Shown here piece by piece: positions 12,552 to 34,745 of a stretch of 38,795 nt of DNA; the stretch's first letter is position 1, and each line of letters opens with the position of its first letter. Position numbers and translations under genes: made by a program. Below the pieces are notes generated by a model. The model saw nothing but the letters and a program-made list of their open reading frames with translations. It had not been told where the DNA came from and searched no databases. The DNA comes from a virus. The DNA lies in the UHGV virus genome UHGV-0423091. One strand, given 5' to 3'.

Positions 12552-12628
12552 GTGGCATTAGCTCAGTTGGACAGAGCAACCGCCTTCTAAGCGGTTGGTC
12601 GCAGGTTCGAATCCTGCATGCCACGCCA
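12552..12628 (+). tRNA. tRNA-Arg (anticodon TCT, reads AGA/AGG), argU-like
   Basis: Hand-folded cloverleaf: 7-bp acceptor GTGGCAT/ATGCCAC, D-arm GCTC...GAGC, anticodon stem ACCGC/GCGGT with loop CTTCTAA, T-arm GCAGG-TTCGAAT-CCTGC, discriminator G and encoded CCA. Confidence 0.85.
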
Positions 12629-12815: not shown

Positions 12816-12831
12816 GCTTGATGACCGCAAA

Positions 12832-12849
12832 TTACCTTAAAGGTATAAT
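12832..12849. promoter_or_regulatory. operator-like site TTACC-ttaaa-GGTAt overlapping a perfect TATAAT (12844-12849) just upstream of the moron gene
   Basis: One-mismatch copy of the dispersed palindrome; consensus -10 hexamer. Confidence 0.4.
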
Positions 12850-12850
12850 C

Positions 12851-13669
12851 ATGAAAAACTTCAAGGTAATTAGCATGTTTGAATCGTTCAAAGAGCTGTT
12901 TTTATCTACTGCCAATACTGCCGTGAATCGAGCCAAAAACCCTGTGCTTGGTGCTTTTGTTATGTCCTGGTGCGCCTTCAACTGGAAATCAATTCTTTAT
13001 CTATTTTTTAGCAAATCAAACATAATAGATAAAATTTCATATATCTCAGATAACAGCACATGGAAAACTGTTATGTTTTATCCATGCTTATCTGTAATTG
13101 CTATCTGCTGCCTATTACCATGGGTAAACAATATCATTAACGTATGGCAAGCAAAGCCTCTTGATAATAATGACTCAATCGAAAATCACCTGAAGGCAAG
13201 AAAAATCCAGCGTGAAACAAGACTGCAGAGGTTATTGGCTAAAAAAGATGTTACATACGACAAAGTTAAGACTGGCGCGGAAAAAGACATCCAAGAGATG
13301 AAAGAAGAGATTATTCGATCAAAGAATAGTATGGGGGAATTGACTGCCGAGTTGAAAGCTAAAGATGACGAATTGAGATCCGCCAGTGCTCAGTTAGCAG
13401 CTCTAAATCATTCATTAAAAGAGATATCGGAAACTCTTGGAAGAATGAATGAGGCATATAAGACCCTCCAAAATGATTTCGACGAATACAAACTCAAATA
13501 CCCTGAAAAATCTCAAATAAAAAGCCTTGAACTTGGCAACGGCCAAACAATTAGCAACTTTTTGGAGCAACACAACTTATCCGGATTAAAATCTGGTAAG
13601 CCAAACGTTTTTAATAACTTTGGTGTTCTATCTGGATTATCAGGTTTCGAGGATAAAAATAAAGACTAA
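12851..13669 (+). CDS. moron: membrane plus coiled-coil protein, 272 aa; candidate superinfection-exclusion or abortive-infection factor
   Basis: Track ORF trimmed to ATG 12851; two predicted transmembrane segments then a long charged helical region; AT-rich; antisense to and converging on the terminase gene. Confidence 0.65.
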   Translation: MKNFKVISMFESFKELFLSTANTAVNRAKNPVLGAFVMSWCAFNWKSILYLFFSKSNIIDKISYISDNSTWKTVMFYPCLSVIAICCLLPWVNNIINVWQAKPLDNNDSIENHLKARKIQRETRLQRLLAKKDVTYDKVKTGAEKDIQEMKEEIIRSKNSMGELTAELKAKDDELRSASAQLAALNHSLKEISETLGRMNEAYKTLQNDFDEYKLKYPEKSQIKSLELGNGQTISNFLEQHNLSGLKSGKPNVFNNFGVLSGLSGFEDKNKD

Positions 13670-15141
13670 GCATATGGATCGTACTCGGTAAGCGCCTTGC
13701 CTTGCTGGTTCTGCTGCCCGGGAAGTCGCAGGCGCTTTGACACCGGGAAAGCAAACGTCAGCAGTAGCGCATCGCCTTTACCAGGCGAACGCCCAAGTCG
13801 TTCTTTGATATCTTCCTTCGGTTCGATAACGATTTTACCGTCCACGCGAACTTTGTACTCTGCCGCCGACAGATCGTCCGCTGTTTCCTGGTCATCCAGC
13901 ATCCCGCCCAACCTCAGCCATGTCTTGCATGAGTTGAACATCTCCCCGCGCTTGTTGAGCATCTGAGGGTCAGTTGACGCACCACCGAACGGAACAAGTT
14001 GCCATGTGCGCCCCCAGCCGTCACCGATTGACTTCAGACCGGTTCCGTAACCGAAGTCGATGAACACCGCGTCAGCCTGATACTGGTCTTCAAAGTCAGC
14101 GATACGCTTCGCCATAATCAGATCGTCAGTGGTCTTGTTGCCAGTCCATAGCACCTTACTATGCAACCCCTGCCGCAGGTATATCACCGCGTCATCAACG
14201 CCTGAATATGCCGGGTCAACACCGATTATCACCGGAGCATGTGCCACCTGCGCAGCGGTTACCACCCGTTTCATTGCCTCATCAGTAAGACCGGTAGGGA
14301 TAAACTGCAATTCAGATGCATCAGGGAATATGCCGCGCACACGGATTTTAACGAAGTCGCTGTCTTCCCCGTAGTCATCAACCCATTTCTGCAACTGCTG
14401 TTTGTTAGTACCTTCCACCGTCCGGCTGTCAATCTGCGCAGTTTTCCAGCGGTGTTTGTATTTGCGGAAACATTCGCGAAAACGCCCGGTATTACGTGTA
14501 GGGTTTCCGAACGCCACCCAGATAATCTCAGTGTCTTCGTCCGTAAGCGCACCCTCAGCAACTTCCCACACCAGATCCGCAATGTTCGACGCTTCATCGA
14601 ATACCACGATGATGCGTTTGCGCTCGTTGTGTAGTCCGGCGAATGCCTCAGTGTTGTGCTCAGACCAGGGGATTGCGTCAGCTCGCCACCGCTTGTCGTG
14701 CCCAGGATCATTGCTGTACATCGCGGTAGCGGTACAGGTAAACCAGTCTTTCGTGATAGCAAGGTTCGACCACTTGATAATTTCCGGCCAGGTCTTCGTT
14801 CGTAGCTGGTTGTCGGTGTTGGCGGTCACCACGACCTTACAATCCTCGCAAGTGGACATGCCCCAGTTGATCAGCATTGAGATGAATGCGGATTTACCAA
14901 TACCGTGACCAGAAGCACGTGCCAGCATAAGCGGCTGATAACGCGTCTCTGGATTCTGCAGGTGATCACGTATCTCTCGGAACGCATCGGCCTGCCACTG
15001 ACGTGGGCCGGTAGCATGTGCCAGTTCAGTCCCCTCTTCCCCCCACGGGAACGCATAGAGGGCATAGCCAAGCGGATCGTGAGTGAACCCTGCAATATCC
15101 TCGATTAACTGCTCTTCAGGAGATAACGCTGTATCTGTCAC
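13666..15141 (-). CDS. terminase large subunit, 491 aa
   Basis: Walker A-like ARASGHGIGKS near the N-terminus; size; directly downstream of the small subunit. Confidence 0.9.
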   Translation of the reverse strand: MTDTALSPEEQLIEDIAGFTHDPLGYALYAFPWGEEGTELAHATGPRQWQADAFREIRDHLQNPETRYQPLMLARASGHGIGKSAFISMLINWGMSTCEDCKVVVTANTDNQLRTKTWPEIIKWSNLAITKDWFTCTATAMYSNDPGHDKRWRADAIPWSEHNTEAFAGLHNERKRIIVVFDEASNIADLVWEVAEGALTDEDTEIIWVAFGNPTRNTGRFRECFRKYKHRWKTAQIDSRTVEGTNKQQLQKWVDDYGEDSDFVKIRVRGIFPDASELQFIPTGLTDEAMKRVVTAAQVAHAPVIIGVDPAYSGVDDAVIYLRQGLHSKVLWTGNKTTDDLIMAKRIADFEDQYQADAVFIDFGYGTGLKSIGDGWGRTWQLVPFGGASTDPQMLNKRGEMFNSCKTWLRLGGMLDDQETADDLSAAEYKVRVDGKIVIEPKEDIKERLGRSPGKGDALLLTFAFPVSKRLRLPGQQNQQGKALTEYDPYA

Positions 15142-15734
15142 TGATTACCATCCTGACGTTCTTTGAGTCGCTTCCTGGCTGCTGCTATGCGATCAGCAAT
15201 TGTCACATTCACATTAACATCCAGACGTTCTTTGAACGCGTTGACATCAACATGCTTACCAATCAGCTCAAGGTTCTTCACCTTGTCAGGCCATTTAATT
15301 TTTTTGAGGATTGTCTCTATCGAATCCTCGTTCATGTTCATGATGGTCGATGACAAATCAAAGCCACTAAGCGTAGTGCGCCAGATTTTCGGCCACTCAC
15401 GGATTGGTTTAAGGCTCCCATCGTCGTTGAGGATGTCGATCACGTCCATCTGGTCGATCTGCACCAGGCGCATGAGAACGTAATCAGCACTGACGCGCAT
15501 TCGTTTGTTGCGCTCCTCCATCAACTCGGCAATCCGTTTTTGAATGCGTTCATCGCGCATCATGACACTGGCTTTAACTGCCGCTGTATTTGGGGAGAAT
15601 CCTGCGTTAATCGCTGCCTGAGTCTGGTTTTCAGGCGTTTTGATGTATGACTGGCAATAAGCCTCCTGCATTGCTGTTAGTGGCTTAAATTGCGTTGATT
15701 TGCGTTTATAGGTTTTAGGTTCAGCAGGCATCAT
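15138..15734 (-). CDS. terminase small subunit, about 198 aa
   Basis: Track ORF 15138..15812 trimmed to tandem ATGs at 15734/15731, because a terminator hairpin lies inside the track's N-terminal extension. Confidence 0.65.
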   Translation of the reverse strand: MMPAEPKTYKRKSTQFKPLTAMQEAYCQSYIKTPENQTQAAINAGFSPNTAAVKASVMMRDERIQKRIAELMEERNKRMRVSADYVLMRLVQIDQMDVIDILNDDGSLKPIREWPKIWRTTLSGFDLSSTIMNMNEDSIETILKKIKWPDKVKNLELIGKHVDVNAFKERLDVNVNVTIADRIAAARKRLKERQDGNQ

Positions 15735-15766
15735 AACCACCGTGGTAATAGTTACCGTTATGGTAA
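15734..15766. promoter_or_regulatory. two tandem operator-like sites (TaACC-accgt-GGTAA and TTACC-gttat-GGTAA) overlapping the terminase small subunit start and SD
   Basis: Dispersed palindrome copies at 15734-15748 and 15752-15766. Confidence 0.45.
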
Positions 15767-15775
15767 TAGTACCAT

Positions 15776-15803
15776 GCAAAATAAAGCCGCCATAGTTGGC
15801 GGC
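15776..15803 (-). terminator. intrinsic terminator in the late-operon leader (GCCGCC-6 nt-GGCGGC then TTTATTTTG on the minus strand)
   Basis: 6-bp GC stem followed by a T-rich tract on the coding strand, about 45 nt upstream of the terminase start. Confidence 0.55.
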
Positions 15804-15852
15804 AGTATTCAAAACCCATCAAATTCATCATGCATAATCTACTCGTGACATG

Positions 15853-16191
15853 TCACACTATTAATTTCGTTTCATGCCAGCCTTTAGTCACCCAGCATTG
15901 CGAGTCACCATTACACGGGCATGAATTAACTGGAACTCTCTCGCCGCACTTACCGCAACATTTTCTGCTGATCGATTTTATACGCCCGCGCACGCGTGCA
16001 TCATCCTGGCGGATCAGTAACGCTATATACTCACCAAATTCGTAAGGCGCACGCCCGGGGCGACGCGTGGCACAGTTACGCTCCAGCATTTCAATTTCCT
16101 GAGCATCAAGCACAATTTCCAGCTTACGCACACCAGATGCAGCTTGTCTGGCTCTCTGAGCGGCTTTGCGCTCTGCTGCTGATTTAGCCAT
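15853..16191 (-). CDS. Cys-rich (zinc-ribbon-like) small protein, 112 aa; candidate late-gene regulator
   Basis: C-terminal CCGKCGERVPVNSCPCNGDSQCW cluster; last early-operon gene before the late leader. Confidence 0.5.
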   Translation of the reverse strand: MAKSAAERKAAQRARQAASGVRKLEIVLDAQEIEMLERNCATRRPGRAPYEFGEYIALLIRQDDARVRGRIKSISRKCCGKCGERVPVNSCPCNGDSQCWVTKGWHETKLIV

Positions 16192-16537
16192 TCTGATTTT
16201 CCTGCATCATGAGGAAGACAATCATGGCGGCGCGGAGAACATTTTCATGCTCATGCTCCCAAATATGGTTGGCAGAAGCACCGTGCAAACCGCTTTCGTT
16301 CCAGTCCCAGAGAATGTTAACTCCGTTATCAGCAATAATCGGCCATGAGGCGCTCGGATCATTGCAGTAGTCAGGTAAAGGGTTTAATGGCTCAAAAGTT
16401 GTATCAGCATTTCCGTAATACCATTTGTTGGTGTTATTCCCTGACGTTTCCGGTTTACATGCCCAAAGGCCTTTAAAAATTATGTCTCCTACCATTCTGT
16501 TAATTTCAAAATCACTTAACTGTGAATAGTCCATCAT
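16184..16537 (-). CDS. hypothetical nin-region protein, 117 aa (tentatively NinX/DUF2591-like)
   Basis: Track ORF; conserved-looking PDYCNDP...W segment; family assignment from memory only. Confidence 0.5.
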   Translation of the reverse strand: MMDYSQLSDFEINRMVGDIIFKGLWACKPETSGNNTNKWYYGNADTTFEPLNPLPDYCNDPSASWPIIADNGVNILWDWNESGLHGASANHIWEHEHENVLRAAMIVFLMMQENQNG

Positions 16538-17172
16538 TTCGCCACCTTCGGAGGCTCTGGTAGCGGCATCCAGTGAGTTACGTCATCCAAGATATTTCCT
16601 GATAAATGCGTGAAAGCTCTATATTTTTTGTAATTAATTGGATTTAAAACCCAGTTCCAATATGCGGCCACGATTTCACCTTGACTAAATGCCAGTAACA
16701 TTTTGGTGTCTTCCGGCATTCGATCACTACAGCTTATCCAACCATCCGGAATTACCGGAGAGTTGCCGGGTTCTTTAATGTGCAAGCGAGGCTCACCATC
16801 TTTTGGTTCAGGCCACTGGCGTTCCATGTTGATCTTCAATTTATTTTCCATAGCAGCGGTAATTTCAGCATCACTGATACCAGCACGGCGCTGTGCATCC
16901 CACAACAGGAACTGCATATCAGCCCACTCGCTGAGATCGTCAGGTTTGGCTGCGGCTTCCAGAGCCTCTTTTGAGAGGTGTTTCAGTGGACCAATGGGGC
17001 CAACGCAGCCAAATGTGGAGTCAGACCATTTGGCATGCTCGTGGCGAATCTGTTCGCGTTCCAGCGATGCCAGTGCAATCCGTGCCACTTCCATTTGTTC
17101 GCCACGAGTAAGTCCGTTATCAAGCGGATTTTTAATGAATAATTCGATACGCTCTTTGGTAATAGTGGTCAT
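16534..17172 (-). CDS. DUF550/DUF551-type two-domain protein, 212 aa (putative nucleotide pyrophosphohydrolase-like N-domain)
   Basis: Trimmed to ATG 17172 with AAGGAG SD; C-terminal W...MPE...THWMPLPEPP segment resembles DUF551. Confidence 0.55.
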   Translation of the reverse strand: MTTITKERIELFIKNPLDNGLTRGEQMEVARIALASLEREQIRHEHAKWSDSTFGCVGPIGPLKHLSKEALEAAAKPDDLSEWADMQFLLWDAQRRAGISDAEITAAMENKLKINMERQWPEPKDGEPRLHIKEPGNSPVIPDGWISCSDRMPEDTKMLLAFSQGEIVAAYWNWVLNPINYKKYRAFTHLSGNILDDVTHWMPLPEPPKVAK

Positions 17173-18718: not shown

Positions 18719-18721
18719 GAT

Positions 18722-18798
18722 TTACCCCTGAGGTAATTAAAAACCACATAAGACACGAAATCAATAGATTTTAGAATATTTTATTACCTAACAGGTAA
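18722..18798. promoter_or_regulatory. two perfect operator-like palindromes (18722-18736 TTACC-cctga-GGTAA; 18784-18798 TTACC-taaca-GGTAA)
   Basis: Both lie in the intergenic region upstream of the DUF1064-like gene. Confidence 0.45.
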
Positions 18799-18835
18799 TT
18801 ATCGAAACGTAAAAAAATGCGCTATCGCGCTGGTA

Positions 18836-21066: not shown

Positions 21067-21129
21067 TCACCCATAAGGTAACAAAAATCAAGGATAGTTA
21101 CCTATGAGGTGCATTTACCTGTTGGGTAA
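21067..21129. promoter_or_regulatory. tripartite operator cluster with divergent promoters between the Cro-like and repressor genes
   Basis: Three palindrome copies: 21067-21081 TcACC-cataa-GGTAA, 21098-21112 TTACC-tatga-GGTgc, 21115-21129 TTACC-tgttg-GGTAA. Confidence 0.6.
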
Positions 21130-21184
21130 TATTGCTTTAAATTGAATCATCTACTGATTCATATATGAGGCGATTTTCCAGAAA

Positions 21185-21769
21185 ATGAAAAGTATCCAGG
21201 ACGTCCGCAGGCAAAATCTCAACGACTTGATCGACCGTGAATTCAATGGTGTTCAGACGCGGATGGCAGAAAAACTTGGAACTCAGGCAAATCTGGTAAA
21301 CCGCTGGGCTCTTGGCAAGAAGGTTATCGGCGACCAGGTTGCACGAAAAATTGAAGCTGCCGCCAATAAACCCCGTAACTGGCTTGATATTGATCGCTCG
21401 CTTTCTCAGGAGGGTTTTCAGCCTGTCGGCCCGAGCGATATAGGTCAGCTGGCGGCTCACAACCTGGAACGCTGGATGAGCGAAAGCCGCGACCTTTCAA
21501 CGCAGGGAAAACTACACCGCGCATCCGGCGTCGCCCAGGTGACAATCAGCCGCCTGTTAAACAATGAGGTCAGCGTTTCCATTTCCACCCTGGAGAATGT
21601 TGCATCCGCATTCGGGCGTCACGGCTATGAATTACTGATTCACCCGCACGACCCTGCGACCATCAACTATGATCGCTCGCGCTACGCATTGTTACCCGAA
21701 ACCGAGAAAGCAAAGATCGAAAGTTACATTGAATTTGTCATCAACCAGAACGAAAAAAACAAACAATAA
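21185..21769 (+). CDS. phage repressor (CI role), 194 aa, two HTH-like segments, no S24 peptidase domain
   Basis: Divergent from the Cro-like gene; HTH-like segments near residues 25-45 and 110-135; no Ala-Gly/Ser-Lys autocleavage module; no SD (leaderless-like start). Confidence 0.65.
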   Translation: MKSIQDVRRQNLNDLIDREFNGVQTRMAEKLGTQANLVNRWALGKKVIGDQVARKIEAAANKPRNWLDIDRSLSQEGFQPVGPSDIGQLAAHNLERWMSESRDLSTQGKLHRASGVAQVTISRLLNNEVSVSISTLENVASAFGRHGYELLIHPHDPATINYDRSRYALLPETEKAKIESYIEFVINQNEKNKQ

Positions 21770-21816: not shown

Positions 21817-21826
21817 GCCTATTCGA

Positions 21827-21903
21827 TTACCTAATGGGTAATTTTTTTAACTCATATCTATTGACATCAAACCAGATACGCATAATTATTACCTCAACGG
21901 TAA
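21827..21903. promoter_or_regulatory. second operator pair with sigma70-like promoter (TTGACA at 21861-21866) for the plus-strand recombination operon
   Basis: Perfect palindromes at 21827-21841 (TTACC-taatg-GGTAA) and 21889-21903 (TTACC-tcaac-GGTAA), the latter over the -10/start region. Confidence 0.55.
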
Positions 21904-21922
21904 CAGACCGAGGTAACAAGTT

Positions 21923-28295: not shown

Positions 28296-28593
28296 GTTTA
28301 GACCTCGATATTTTGAAAATCTGAACAACGTTACCGCGTGTTTTAATAACCGCGGCAAGCATGACAGCGTTGATAATGACCTCAGATAAATCCACAGCCA
28401 TTGGCGTGCGTAACCAGATTGCATAGACGACACGAACAGGAATACTGGCCGCAGCAACAATAAGGAAATAAGCAAGCCACCCTCCCCATCTTCGATGTTG
28501 AGAGCCGTTACGCCGGAATGTGACAACGCGAATTGCTATGCCAGTACAAATAACTGCATTGGTGATAAGCAAAAAAAACTCATGCGTTACCAT
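28285..28593 (-). CDS. holin or antiholin, 102 aa, about three transmembrane segments
   Basis: Hydrophobic small protein immediately upstream of, and overlapping, the endolysin start. Confidence 0.5.
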
Positions 28594-31924: not shown

Positions 31925-31940
31925 CTGTATAAATATACAG
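31925..31940. promoter_or_regulatory. LexA (SOS) box CTGTATAAATATACAG
   Basis: Perfect CTGT-N8-ACAG with AT-rich spacer, flanked TA...TT, 22 bp upstream of ATG 31962. Confidence 0.7.
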
Positions 31941-31961
31941 TTATTGCATGGAGAAGATAAG

Positions 31962-32222: not shown

Positions 32223-32265
32223 TTGCAATTACCAAGTGGAGTGCTTATATTTACCATTGCGGTAA
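32223..32265 (+). promoter_or_regulatory. sigma70-like promoter (TTGCAA-N17-TATATT) with operator-like site TTACC-attgc-GGTAA (32251-32265) over the start region
   Basis: Near-consensus -35/-10 with 17-bp spacer; palindrome overlaps the -10 and predicted +1. Confidence 0.45.
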
Positions 32266-32532
32266 ATTTACATCGCACTCCTCTTGTGCCATAGTAATCG
32301 GGCACTGGCAAAATCCAGTGCCGGGATTGGCGTTCCGGATTACTACAGAGGCACATATGCCGCATAAGCGGTTTTTTTATGTGTAAAGCGCACCTATTCT
32401 ATGGTGGGCTGTGTGGGGGCACCGAAAGGTGCGCCGGGTTCCTTTGTAGCCGGTTACGCCAACCCTGCACAGTTCACCACCAACCGATTGGCGTCGGTAG
32501 TGGTGATTAACCTAACTACAAAGGTGATCACT

Positions 32533-33219
32533 ATGACTGCTAACGTAACCCCATCTGTTTTTCATTTTGAATCAGAAGCAACCATTCGAGCCATTGTTAT
32601 TGATGGAAATCCTTGGTTTGTTGCCAAAGACGTTATTAAAGCTCTTCAACTGACAAACCCCACTATGTCAATAAAATCTCTTGATGATGATGAAAGGGCT
32701 AAATTTAACTTAGGCCGTCAAGGCGAAACCAATATTATCAACGAGTCAGGCCTCTACACACTGATCCTCCGCTGCCGCGACGCAGTGACACCAGGCACTA
32801 TCCCCTACCGCTTTCGTAAATGGGTTACAGGTGAGGTTCTTCCTCAGATCCGCCGCACCGGAAGTTACATTAAAAACTCGCTCCCGCAGGAAGAACGCAT
32901 AAAGATGGTTGCCGACCAAGTAGCCAACGCCACGGCGTCAGCAGTGATGCAGGCAATGAAGATAGAGAACAAAACCTACAGTGCACCACTGAAGCCCGGC
33001 TACCGCAGCCTGATTCATTCGCCGTCTGGTGTTCTCGGCCTGACGGAGAACTCACTGCTGATGAATTTGCTGAACCAGTTACAGGAAGACGGGCATGACG
33101 TATCGGGCGCGGCGGCGGAGCTGACCACCATGTTCTGCTACATCGTCGGTGTGAGCAAATGCCTGCGTGATATCCAGACGCACGCGGAGTACATCAACGA
33201 CAAAGCAGGGTTCTTCTGA
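32533..33219 (+). CDS. antirepressor, Bro-N domain family, 228 aa
   Basis: Track ORF 32401..33219 trimmed to ATG 32533 (AAGGTG SD); N-terminal Bro-N-like segment IRAIVIDGNPWFVAKDV...LYTLILRC. Confidence 0.7.
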   Translation: MTANVTPSVFHFESEATIRAIVIDGNPWFVAKDVIKALQLTNPTMSIKSLDDDERAKFNLGRQGETNIINESGLYTLILRCRDAVTPGTIPYRFRKWVTGEVLPQIRRTGSYIKNSLPQEERIKMVADQVANATASAVMQAMKIENKTYSAPLKPGYRSLIHSPSGVLGLTENSLLMNLLNQLQEDGHDVSGAAAELTTMFCYIVGVSKCLRDIQTHAEYINDKAGFF

Positions 33220-33291
33220 CGGGCGGCGGCACAGGGATGTGCCTTTAAATAATTCTGTACAGATTGCAGACTGGGGGTGAATAGCGTACTA

Positions 33292-33306
33292 TTACCTTAA
33301 AGGTAA
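33292..33306. promoter_or_regulatory. operator-like palindrome TTACC-ttaaa-GGTAA upstream of the accessory module
   Basis: Perfect copy 43 bp upstream of ATG 33349. Confidence 0.45.
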
Positions 33307-33348
33307 ACCTGTTTTTATTTTATACCTGTAACTTACCGGAGATTAAAG

Positions 33349-33675
33349 ATGACAAAACTTGGATTCGTGATGAGAGGTCCGGTAAGAAGCGGAACTCATG
33401 CAAAGCGTAGCAAGAGTCGTATTTTTACTGGTAAGGTTGTAGCACGTAAATCAGCTATTGGCTCGTTCAATAGTGAAAATGCGGCATTGCGCCATATTTT
33501 TATCAGCACAAAGCCAAGAGCATCCGCTGATGTGCATACAATGACTATTCCTATCACAAAGAATATAAAGCGGATAAAAAAGCTCTCATCTGCAGAATCA
33601 AAAGAGATATCTTTCCGCCAGCTTAACTCATTAGAAACGCATATGAAGGAAGAGGAATTCGATGTTTTTGAGTGA
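33349..33675 (+). CDS. highly basic small protein, 108 aa (accessory module gene 1)
   Basis: GGAG SD 7 nt upstream; Lys/Arg-rich; AT-rich codon usage; overlaps the next gene by 14 bp. Confidence 0.5.
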   Translation: MTKLGFVMRGPVRSGTHAKRSKSRIFTGKVVARKSAIGSFNSENAALRHIFISTKPRASADVHTMTIPITKNIKRIKKLSSAESKEISFRQLNSLETHMKEEEFDVFE

Positions 33676-34174
33676 GTATAGCGGGAAGGTTATACCTACT
33701 GGTGAGTTTAAAACTGATGACTTTCTGATTTCGCTAAAAGATGCTTTTAAACAACACTGGCGTCATGGTCATCATCCTGATCTGGGAAAAGATACTCTTT
33801 TTGAAAGACCAGACGAAGTATTAGGTTTCCATCTCAGAAAGGTTCATGTCAATATTGGTGAATATGCATCATATTCATACTCATGTACTGAACAGTGTTG
33901 GGATGAGTGGTCATATGGATTGATTGATGAACAAGGAAATTACAGGCCAAAACCAACCAGTAACGCATATCTCATATATGCAGTCAATGAAATAAGAGAT
34001 GCAGCCTTACTAGCTTATTGGGACCCGCCCGCACACACCAAAGCTAACGCAAAAGTTTGGATGGATTCCGTATTGAATTTCACAAAATTATTTCATGAAC
34101 GAACGAATACAGCTCCACTTAGTAGAAATGTTTATCCGTGGGATTATTCGTACAAATCCAAAAAGCCTGCATAG
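33662..34174 (+). CDS. hypothetical protein, 170 aa, His/Trp/Tyr-rich (accessory module gene 2); loose by-eye resemblance to YafO-type toxins
   Basis: GAGG SD; translationally coupled to gene 1; resemblance is from memory and low-confidence. Confidence 0.5.
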   Translation: MFLSEYSGKVIPTGEFKTDDFLISLKDAFKQHWRHGHHPDLGKDTLFERPDEVLGFHLRKVHVNIGEYASYSYSCTEQCWDEWSYGLIDEQGNYRPKPTSNAYLIYAVNEIRDAALLAYWDPPAHTKANAKVWMDSVLNFTKLFHERTNTAPLSRNVYPWDYSYKSKKPA

Positions 34175-34440: not shown

Positions 34441-34448
34441 GTGACATG

Positions 34449-34745
34449 TCACGTTCCTTTTCTGAATGATAGCCGTTCGAAAAATGATGACATTCCACCG
34501 CAGACAATAGCAAAGATGATCCCACCAAAGAAGAGAAGGCCAGCCTGCCACCACTCCCACCGCCATACATCCACAGCACCAACCATACCAACAATCGCTC
34601 CAACAAACGGAATATAACTCACGATGAAAGCAATGGTGGCTGCAATTATCCAGTGCAATCCCCACCATGATTCAAGCCCAGCCATAATTGCTGCCAACTG
34701 AAAAAGGCCAACGACGATATAAACAATGAATCCTATCGCTTGCAT
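34449..34745 (-). CDS. small integral membrane protein, 98 aa, last gene of the late operon
   Basis: Three hydrophobic segments rich in Gly/Ala/Ile/Trp. Confidence 0.55.
   Translation of the reverse strand: MQAIGFIVYIVVGLFQLAAIMAGLESWWGLHWIIAATIAFIVSYIPFVGAIVGMVGAVDVWRWEWWQAGLLFFGGIIFAIVCGGMSSFFERLSFRKGT

Follow-up and report, generated by a model that had tools for sequence, protein, structure and literature searches.

The nearest described counterparts of the locus considered here are those of phages epsilon15 and SPC32H. The RefSeq record of epsilon15 labels copies of a short inverted repeat 'protein_bind: repressor (lysogeny)', one of them at positions 12-27, immediately before the small terminase gene terS. 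The SPC32H repressor, Rep, reportedly binds palindromic sites in the form of a tetramer, the two DNA-binding pairs being drawn from different dimers (PMC9638917, in the part that discusses Kim et al. 2016), and overexpression of the repressor in phage vB_EcoP_ZX5 abolishes transcription of the holin and endolysin genes (PMC9782041). The DNA analysed here, the UHGV virus genome UHGV-0423091 (38,795 nt; the whole stretch is called the window), is a circularly permuted 38.8-kb genome of Uetakevirus, the epsilon15/phiV10-like temperate podophages. Its positions 15100-16600 are 92-99.5% identical to the nearest phages: ZX5, TL-2011b, PAS61 and phiV10. Our subject is the leader of terS, where the early-right operon meets the first late operon (terS-terL).

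We give somewhat better than even chances to the following explanation taken as a whole: an intrinsic terminator closes the early operon, a terS promoter guarded by the immunity repressor lies behind it, and a 12-bp palindrome in front of it is the DNA site of the 112-amino-acid (aa) Cys-rich protein encoded by the last early gene. The leader itself is a known kind of element, its operator being already annotated in epsilon15. The pairing of the palindrome, GTGAC-N2-GTCAC, with the protein family PHROG 536 appears to be undescribed: neither this pairing nor the operator definition and the palindrome sequences were found in the literature searched, and the epsilon15 and phiV10 records carry no annotation of the pairing.

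Layout of the terS leader

The early-right operon comprises replication genes, DUF1064, Ead/Ea22, DUF551 and NinX genes and, as its last gene, the 112-aa open reading frame (ORF). Coordinates are given on the plus strand throughout; the functional strand of the leader is the minus strand. The elements of the junction are as follows.

15853..16191, minus strand: gene of the 112-aa protein (PHROG 536), final gene of the early-right (nin-like) operon by synteny
15845-15856, both strands: palindrome 1, a perfect 12-bp GTGACATGTCAC overlapping the TGA stop codon (15855-15853) of the 112-aa gene
15809..15835, minus strand: mini-ORF of 8 codons (MHDEFDGF, then a stop), an in-frame deletion remnant of a 70-codon ORF
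15803-15778, minus strand: intrinsic terminator, GCCGCCA-ACTA-TGGCGGC followed by TTTATTTT
15774-15766, minus strand: putative extended -10 element of the terS promoter (P_terS), TGG-TACTAT, whose last two bases are the first two of O1
15751-15767, palindromic: operator O1, minus-strand reading ATTACC-ATAAC-GGTAAC, matching ATTACC-N5-GGTAAT at 11 of 12 arm positions
15733-15749, palindromic: operator O2, minus-strand reading ATTACC-ACGGT-GGTTAT, also matching at 11 of 12 arm positions
15138..15731, minus strand: small terminase gene terS (Terminase_2, Pfam PF03592, E = 1e-29), probable start at ATG 15731
13666..15141, minus strand: large terminase gene terL, downstream of terS

Read along the minus strand, the order is GTG-TGA (stop), GTGACATGTCAC, GAGTAGATTATGCATGATGAATTTGATGGGTTTTGAATACT, GCCGCCAACTATGGCGGC, TTTATTTT, GCA, TGGTACTAT, then TACC-ATAAC-GGTAAC, T, ATTACC-ACGGT-GGTTAT and G-ATG (terS).

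Probable operators of the immunity repressor before terS

O1 and O2 are tandem 17-bp inverted repeats with centres 18 bp apart. An earlier note on this DNA had pointed to two tandem operator-like palindromes before terS, and the repeats are indeed real and belong to a motif far above chance: sites with at most one mismatch to ATTACC-N5-GGTAAT occur 10 times in the window (0.06 expected), those with at most two mismatches 15 times (1.0 expected), and perfect copies three times (0 expected). The same 17-bp motif makes up the OR and OL sites, and the genome carries the cognate repressor gene.

21114-21130: OR operator, in the divergent promoter region beside the repressor gene
21826-21842 and 21888-21904: OL operators, just downstream of the repressor gene and ahead of the early-left operon
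21185..21769, plus strand: immunity repressor gene (Pfam HTH_3; match to PDB 5D50, E = 4e-42), a homologue of SPC32H Rep

We assign O1 and O2 to the immunity repressor, because copies of the motif stand on both sides of the repressor gene and because the epsilon15 record marks this motif as repressor sites; binding of Rep to them is predicted from homology and from that annotation. The repressor encoded in the window is 100% identical to phiV10 p40. The remaining operator sites lie ahead of terS, the DUF1064 gene, the portal block, the tail-fibre/lysis block, int, the C4/ant (antirepressor) module and two morons, and the motif recurs at syntenic places in phiV10, 66FD and Tyrion. The equivalent of O2 is left without annotation in the epsilon15 record.

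Among 79 near-identical prophages none of the 24 arm positions of O1 and O2 varies, as compared with 8 of the 39 other positions; the eight include spacers, the junction base, the 'n' of the TGn element and the first ATG. By our own calculation, the hypergeometric probability that none of the eight would fall in the arms is ~0.016. The tandem arrangement would suit one Rep tetramer, and the overexpression result in ZX5 is compatible with direct control of late genes by the repressor, without proving such control.

Recognition sites for pac and cos are often found at or near terS, and the public records of Uetakevirus are linearised here; the repeats might therefore be packaging signals recognised by TerS and not operators. 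We find this scarcely credible. The 17-bp motif is found on either side of the repressor gene and ahead of some ten unrelated transcription units, epsilon15 has it annotated as repressor sites, and the ends of the records fall on a stop codon, apparently by convention. Control by the immunity repressor thus remains our reading of O1 and O2.

One layout, O-N18-TTGACA/TTGATT-N21-O, is shared by pL and the pair of sites at 18783/18721, with the -10 hexamer ending on the second base of the proximal operator. The latter pair marks an internal early-right promoter (18721-18799, minus strand) directly after the replication genes, which would drive the block from DUF1064 to the 112-aa gene. This block appears to be a separate Rep-controlled unit, because it has its own promoter with pL-like architecture (operator-N18-TTGATT-N21-operator).

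The earlier note had the operators overlap both the start codon and the Shine-Dalgarno sequence of terS. O2 does cover the Shine-Dalgarno sequence GGTGG (15741-15737) and the first ATG (15734-15732); the probable true start lies beyond it. The first ATG is mutated in some close relatives and absent in distant ones, and therefore the true start is most likely ATG 15731-15729, two bases past O2. TL-2011b in RefSeq and Tyrion start terS at the equivalent ATG. A longer terS with a TTG start is annotated in phiV10 (L004, positions 41-715, 224 aa; the start is equivalent to 15812). We rejected it: translation would pass through the terminator and O1 and O2 (…TITITVTITTVV…), and no part of the Terminase_2 domain lies before the downstream ATG. 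The TTG start in phiV10 is almost certainly a mis-call.

Terminator and putative terS promoter

The terminator placed by the earlier note about 45 nt upstream of terS was recovered both by a consensus scan and in the minimum-free-energy fold. It has a 7-bp stem with six G-C pairs, a 4-nt loop and TTTATTTT directly after the stem, as defines an intrinsic terminator; from the end of the T-tract to the terS ATG there are 47 nt. The terminator is kept in phiV10, TL-2011b, Tyrion, 66FD and ST512-KPC3phi13.3, a stem change in another relative (L009) still permits a G-U pair, and the epsilon15 record annotates a rho-independent terminator at the equivalent place. An Rfam search with the leader matched no RNA family.

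Directly upstream of O1 we always found a TGn-hexamer when the 79 prophages and six more distant phages were compared: the TG is invariant, n is G, T or A, and the hexamer is TACTAT, TATTAT or TAGTAT. An extended -10 with TGn is able to replace a -35 element. From this consensus match and its conservation we regard P_terS as a putative promoter that follows the terminator, with O1 expected to span about -8 to +9. The same geometry of -10 element and operator recurs at pL, 18721 and 33291. No match to a -35 element was found at P_terS, the position being taken by the terminator stem. The earlier note had seen no convincing sigma70 -10/-35 pair; the conserved extended -10 reads TGnTAyTAT.

Between the palindrome and the terminator there are 41 nt in the window. 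The full 70-codon ORF from which the mini-ORF derives is still present in 23 of the 79 close relatives (29%), and in other relatives the slot holds only 23 nt or a moron (umuD-like or another gene) with a LexA-box promoter. Judged by these comparisons, the 41-nt stretch is an ORF remnant and not a regulatory element. Among the relatives compared there was no conserved promoter between palindrome and terminator, as would follow from a deletion remnant that is replaced in relatives; a single 9/12 match was found and is not conserved. Two promoter candidates here, TTAATA-17-TAGATT (with the palindrome in its spacer) and GTGACA-18-CATGAT, were rejected, their downstream halves lying in the non-conserved ORF remnant.

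In six relatives (L088, L090, L091, L150, L151 and L158) the moron is inserted 2-7 nt past the palindrome. The inserted morons carry a strong promoter (e.g. TTGACT-17-TACTGT) with an embedded LexA box, which would drive the umuD-like or other small gene.

Because the conserved promoter element lies downstream of the terminator and none lies upstream, we read the terminator as the end of the early operon and not as an attenuator of the late transcript. The earlier note had compared the leader with the lambda pR'-tR'-Q logic, in which a promoter upstream of the terminator would give a terminated short RNA and the 112-aa protein would be a Q-like antiterminator loading at the palindrome. Some features do resemble such a switch: the 112-aa gene occupies the place of Q as the last early gene before the late genes, the weak promoter-like GTGACA-18-CATGAT overlaps the palindrome, and palindromes precede terminators at three places in Uetakevirus. 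Nevertheless, the comparison does not hold, and we regard a lambda-like switch as very unlikely. The stretch that would have to carry the promoter is a remnant, and relatives have in its place the 70-codon ORF, a LexA-controlled moron or a mere 23 nt; the conserved promoter-like element, with operators that belong to the repressor, lies on the other side of the terminator. The 112-aa protein has no match to a Q family, and N15 encodes a separate Q-like late activator, gp40, besides the 112-aa homologue gp46; since N15 carries both, the 112-aa protein is not the equivalent of Q. The variable distance from palindrome to terS among relatives (~75 to >400 nt) speaks against such a switch as well. 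Finally, a reverse-oriented moron (phiV10 p03, epsilon15 gp50) is closed by one of the palindrome-terminator units, where read-through would run antisense into terL and would be harmful.

The missing -35 element raises another question, whether P_terS needs the 112-aa protein at the palindrome, or another early protein (e.g. a PerC-like activator), so that late expression is delayed. Without extra control all operons under one repressor would fire together, and Vibrio phage K308 has a palindrome 31 nt ahead of its terS ATG. Such dependence on an activator is nonetheless improbable in our judgement. The extended -10 TGn can stand in for a -35 element, and the -10 element is directly preceded by the terminator hairpin, no further conserved site being present there. 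The spacing is not conserved either: from palindrome to promoter there are ~90 nt here, ~70 in 66FD, ~270 where the small ORF is present and >400 where morons are inserted, and from palindrome to terS ~75 to >400 nt among relatives. The latter variation argues against an activator site of fixed geometry. We therefore keep to a promoter held by Rep as the preferred account of P_terS.

A palindrome that accompanies PHROG 536 proteins

The perfect 12-bp palindrome that the earlier note had found over the stop codon of the 112-aa gene was confirmed, and a second copy is present in the window together with a terminator.

34441-34452, both strands: palindrome 2, a second perfect GTGACATGTCAC overlapping the TGA stop codon of a 98-aa membrane-protein ORF (34449..34745, minus strand)
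34440-34416: intrinsic terminator, starting 1 nt beyond palindrome 2

In Markov shuffles of the window GTGACNNGTCAC occurred 0.03 times on average. Palindrome 1 stays in place among relatives while its flanks diverge, and sites homologous to palindrome 2 are found in phiV10, 66FD, Tyrion and epsilon15. These four phages have two to three copies each, always in the order gene end, palindrome, terminator.

The 112-aa protein belongs to PHROG 536 ('transcriptional regulator'; E = 1.7e-54 over residues 1-111), whose members include phiV10 p55, epsilon15 gp49 and N15 gp46. Further homologues are phiKO2 gp45, proteins of P2-like Yersinia phages, and Vibrio and Aeromonas phage proteins; in the homologue searches with the 112-aa protein itself, the matches listed were close relatives only. 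The family is small, with 152 clusters at 50% identity (E <= 1e-3). Four cysteines (C40, C79, C82 and C99) and several basic N-terminal residues are invariant in it. The protein had no Pfam match at E <= 0.01, and sequence and profile searches against the PDB returned noise only. In the AlphaFold 2 (AF2) model of the monomer a coil at residues 20-29 is followed by two helices, compatible with a ribbon-helix-helix fold at low confidence.

The link between the palindrome and the neighbouring Cys-rich protein, suggested in the earlier note, gained strong backing from their co-occurrence across distant phages. Of eight phage genomes with a gene for a homologue of the 112-aa protein, seven have one to three copies of GTGAC-NN-GTCAC (null means 0.01-0.04); the motif is absent from lambda. 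In 49 N15-like viral contigs we counted 105 copies in 883 kb (0.84 expected), and in loci taken as one genome per species 39 copies in 472 kb (0.45 expected), counts that overstate the number of independent events, many of the loci being related to one another. The palindrome lies at the stop codon of the gp46 homologue in 49 of 49 N15-like loci, and overlaps the stop codon or lies at most 3 nt from it in 21 of 25 species loci. The species loci include Yersinia homologues of ~40% identity (GTGACGCGTCAC) and prophages that lack the Uetakevirus ATTACC operators. Overall, motif and protein family occur together in N15-like, Yersinia, Vibrio and other enterobacterial prophages. Scans of viral contigs with the Vibrio and Aeromonas proteins gave two loci and none, respectively. 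In Aeromonas phages a variant, GTGACCGGACAC, lies between a -10-like TGGTATAGT element and the homologue's own Shine-Dalgarno sequence, and it recurs near the start of another gene.

From this co-occurrence we conclude that the palindrome is quite probably the cognate DNA site of the 112-aa protein. The half-sites are invariant and the central 2 bp vary with no covariation or compensatory change, which argues for a double-stranded DNA site of a dimeric protein rather than for an RNA hairpin. As to placement, in enterobacterial prophages 25 of 58 palindrome sites adjoin intrinsic terminators, as compared with 1.5% of random positions, many of these sites being homologous.

An action of the palindrome as RNA, in the form of a Com-like hairpin acting on translation of the next gene or on the terminator, or else its use as a recombination junction in the exchange of morons, has several points in its favour. 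The palindrome often stands directly before a Shine-Dalgarno sequence and ATG (N15 gene 47, the 70-codon ORF, Vibrio and Aeromonas genes), and elsewhere a terminator stem follows it directly; mosaic junctions fall exactly at its edge; and the 112-aa protein has a Cys4 cluster, like Com of phage Mu, which is an RNA-binding protein with such a cluster. We still assign only a small chance to these roles. A conserved RNA hairpin would show the opposite of invariant arms around a variable centre without compensatory change. The 5-bp stem, with its 2-nt loop, is unable to fold, and a stem of 4 bp would be weak; no recombinase is associated with the PHROG 536 family. A DNA site of the 112-aa protein is the interpretation carried forward below.

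A model of the early-late junction

In the model that we propose, the early operon would end with the 112-aa gene, whose stop codon lies inside a palindrome that is the probable site of the encoded protein. Past the ORF remnant, the intrinsic terminator would stop early transcription. Directly after it would come the extended -10 promoter (TGgTACTAT), devoid of a -35 element and overlapped by two tandem Rep operators. In the lysogen Rep would silence the terminase operon directly, by the same operator that stands ahead of nearly every transcription unit. The 112-aa protein would bind the palindrome as a dimer, and the bound protein may repress transcription locally or block its passage, thereby insulating operon ends. 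We prefer such local repression or roadblocking, by which operon ends are sealed, because the terminator-adjacent placements and those before start codons both fit it.

Besides the relatedness of the counted loci, several points weigh against this model. Its binding partners and start site are predicted for this phage: the P_terS start, the binding of Rep and the binding of the 112-aa protein are all derived from sequence comparison. P_terS, having no -35 element, may be weak or dependent on a helper. The operator arms are identical in all relatives examined, even in those with repressors only 43% identical, and O2 is degenerate in some (distant) relatives. The placement of the palindromes is not uniform, the sites in Vibrio, Aeromonas and N15 lying just upstream of start codons (9-35 nt). 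N15 (L094) has GTGAC-(TG/CA)-GTCAC at 28550, 33237 and 39269, that is, at the gp46 stop codon (20 nt before the ATG of gene 47), downstream of gene 33 and inside repA; the site inside repA, conserved in N15-like contigs, fits neither the terminator nor the start-codon pattern. As for the protein, the AF2 model has a mean predicted local distance difference test score of 68 from a shallow alignment (40 sequences, 71-97% identity), so that no fold was identified, and a Foldseek search of the PDB with it gave nothing better than E = 3.7. The sole hint of DNA binding from similarity is a sub-threshold match to the NCBIfam family 'LexA regulated protein' (E = 0.052, 14 bits against a cut-off of 62).

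If the model is right, Uetakevirus seems to silence its late operons directly by the immunity repressor, with no sign of a late switch of the Q, Ogr or Lpa type. Direct silencing raises the question of late timing, which simple reporter fusions could address. A widespread family paired with a precise 12-bp motif is also a ready hypothesis for electrophoretic mobility shift assays or chromatin immunoprecipitation; the PHROG 536 gene goes by 'hypothetical' or 'transcriptional regulator' in the annotation of hundreds of E. coli, Salmonella, Klebsiella, Yersinia and Vibrio prophages. A tentative generalization, which we think possible and somewhat doubtful, is that PHROG 536 is an undescribed family of small Cys4 DNA-binding proteins. 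Their target, GTGAC-N2-GTCAC, would typically incorporate the stop codon of the gene encoding them, and the protein, once bound, would be a programmable roadblock or insulator that seals operon ends alongside intrinsic terminators. If so, a protein-assisted termination device would be common to podo-, sipho- and myoviruses of enterobacteria, Yersinia, Vibrio and Aeromonas.

Other elements in the window

Several elements elsewhere in the window are related to the Rep operators or to the immunity system.

32302-32484, plus strand: isrK small RNA (Rfam, 71 bits) and C4 antisense RNA (84 bits), upstream of and overlapping the start of the antirepressor ORF
32401..33219, plus strand: Bro-N/Ash-type antirepressor ORF
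32250-32266: Rep operator with two mismatches, just upstream of isrK/C4
~31940-31960: perfect LexA box (AACTGTATATTTATACAGTAT), between the tail-fibre promoter region and the isrK/C4/antirepressor module
12552-12625, plus strand: tRNA gene (73 bits), between the portal block and a moron
12851..13669, plus strand: the moron, encoding a 272-aa coiled-coil protein
12831-12847: Rep operator with two mismatches, overlapping the Shine-Dalgarno sequence of the 272-aa moron
33291-33307: Rep operator, preceding a 108-aa ORF
33662..34174, plus strand: ORF downstream of the 108-aa ORF, with a weak YafO-toxin-like match (E ~1e-3, below the Pfam cut-off)

Together with C4, the antirepressor ORF forms a c4-ant module like immI of P1/P7, here in a podophage, and the operator upstream of it is placed like Op51 of P1. 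The position of the LexA box upstream of the module implies SOS induction via a LexA-controlled antirepressor, as has reportedly been described for SPC32H. At the 272-aa moron a plus-strand terminator before the operator mirrors the terS leader. The region of the YafO-like ORF may be a toxin-antitoxin-like moron.

Comparison with known systems

The Rep-Ant system of epsilon15 and SPC32H is the most similar: the operator ATTACC-N5-GGTAAT is identical and occupies the same syntenic places, including that just before terS, the repressor is homologous (PDB 5D50), and a LexA box, a Bro-N antirepressor and a C4 RNA module are found in the window too. The window differs in its second tandem operator, O2, over the Shine-Dalgarno sequence, whereas the epsilon15 record has one site there. 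That record annotates no promoter at this place and no GTGACATGTCAC palindromes.

With lambda pR'-tR'-Q the leader shares a small regulator as the last early gene and a terminator between the regulator and the packaging genes. The order of elements is reversed, however, the terminator coming before the conserved promoter; the leader carries repressor operators, and the protein lies outside the Q families.

P1 C1 and the stoperators of mycobacteriophage L5 gp71 are similar in that one repressor has more than ten sites across the genome, before or inside many transcription units, and in P1 a C4-type antisense RNA likewise lies upstream of the antirepressor. Late genes of P1 are controlled through Lpa, and the L5 stoperators are asymmetric and orientation-dependent. 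In contrast to both, the operators of the window are symmetric 17-mers of lambdoid type, located mostly at promoters and also directly before late structural operons.

By analogy only, the placement of palindrome 1 recalls the autogenous roadblock of LacI at O3, in which the DNA site of a regulator overlaps the end of its own coding sequence; it differs in that in Aeromonas phages the palindrome is at the 5' end of the gene for the 112-aa homologue.

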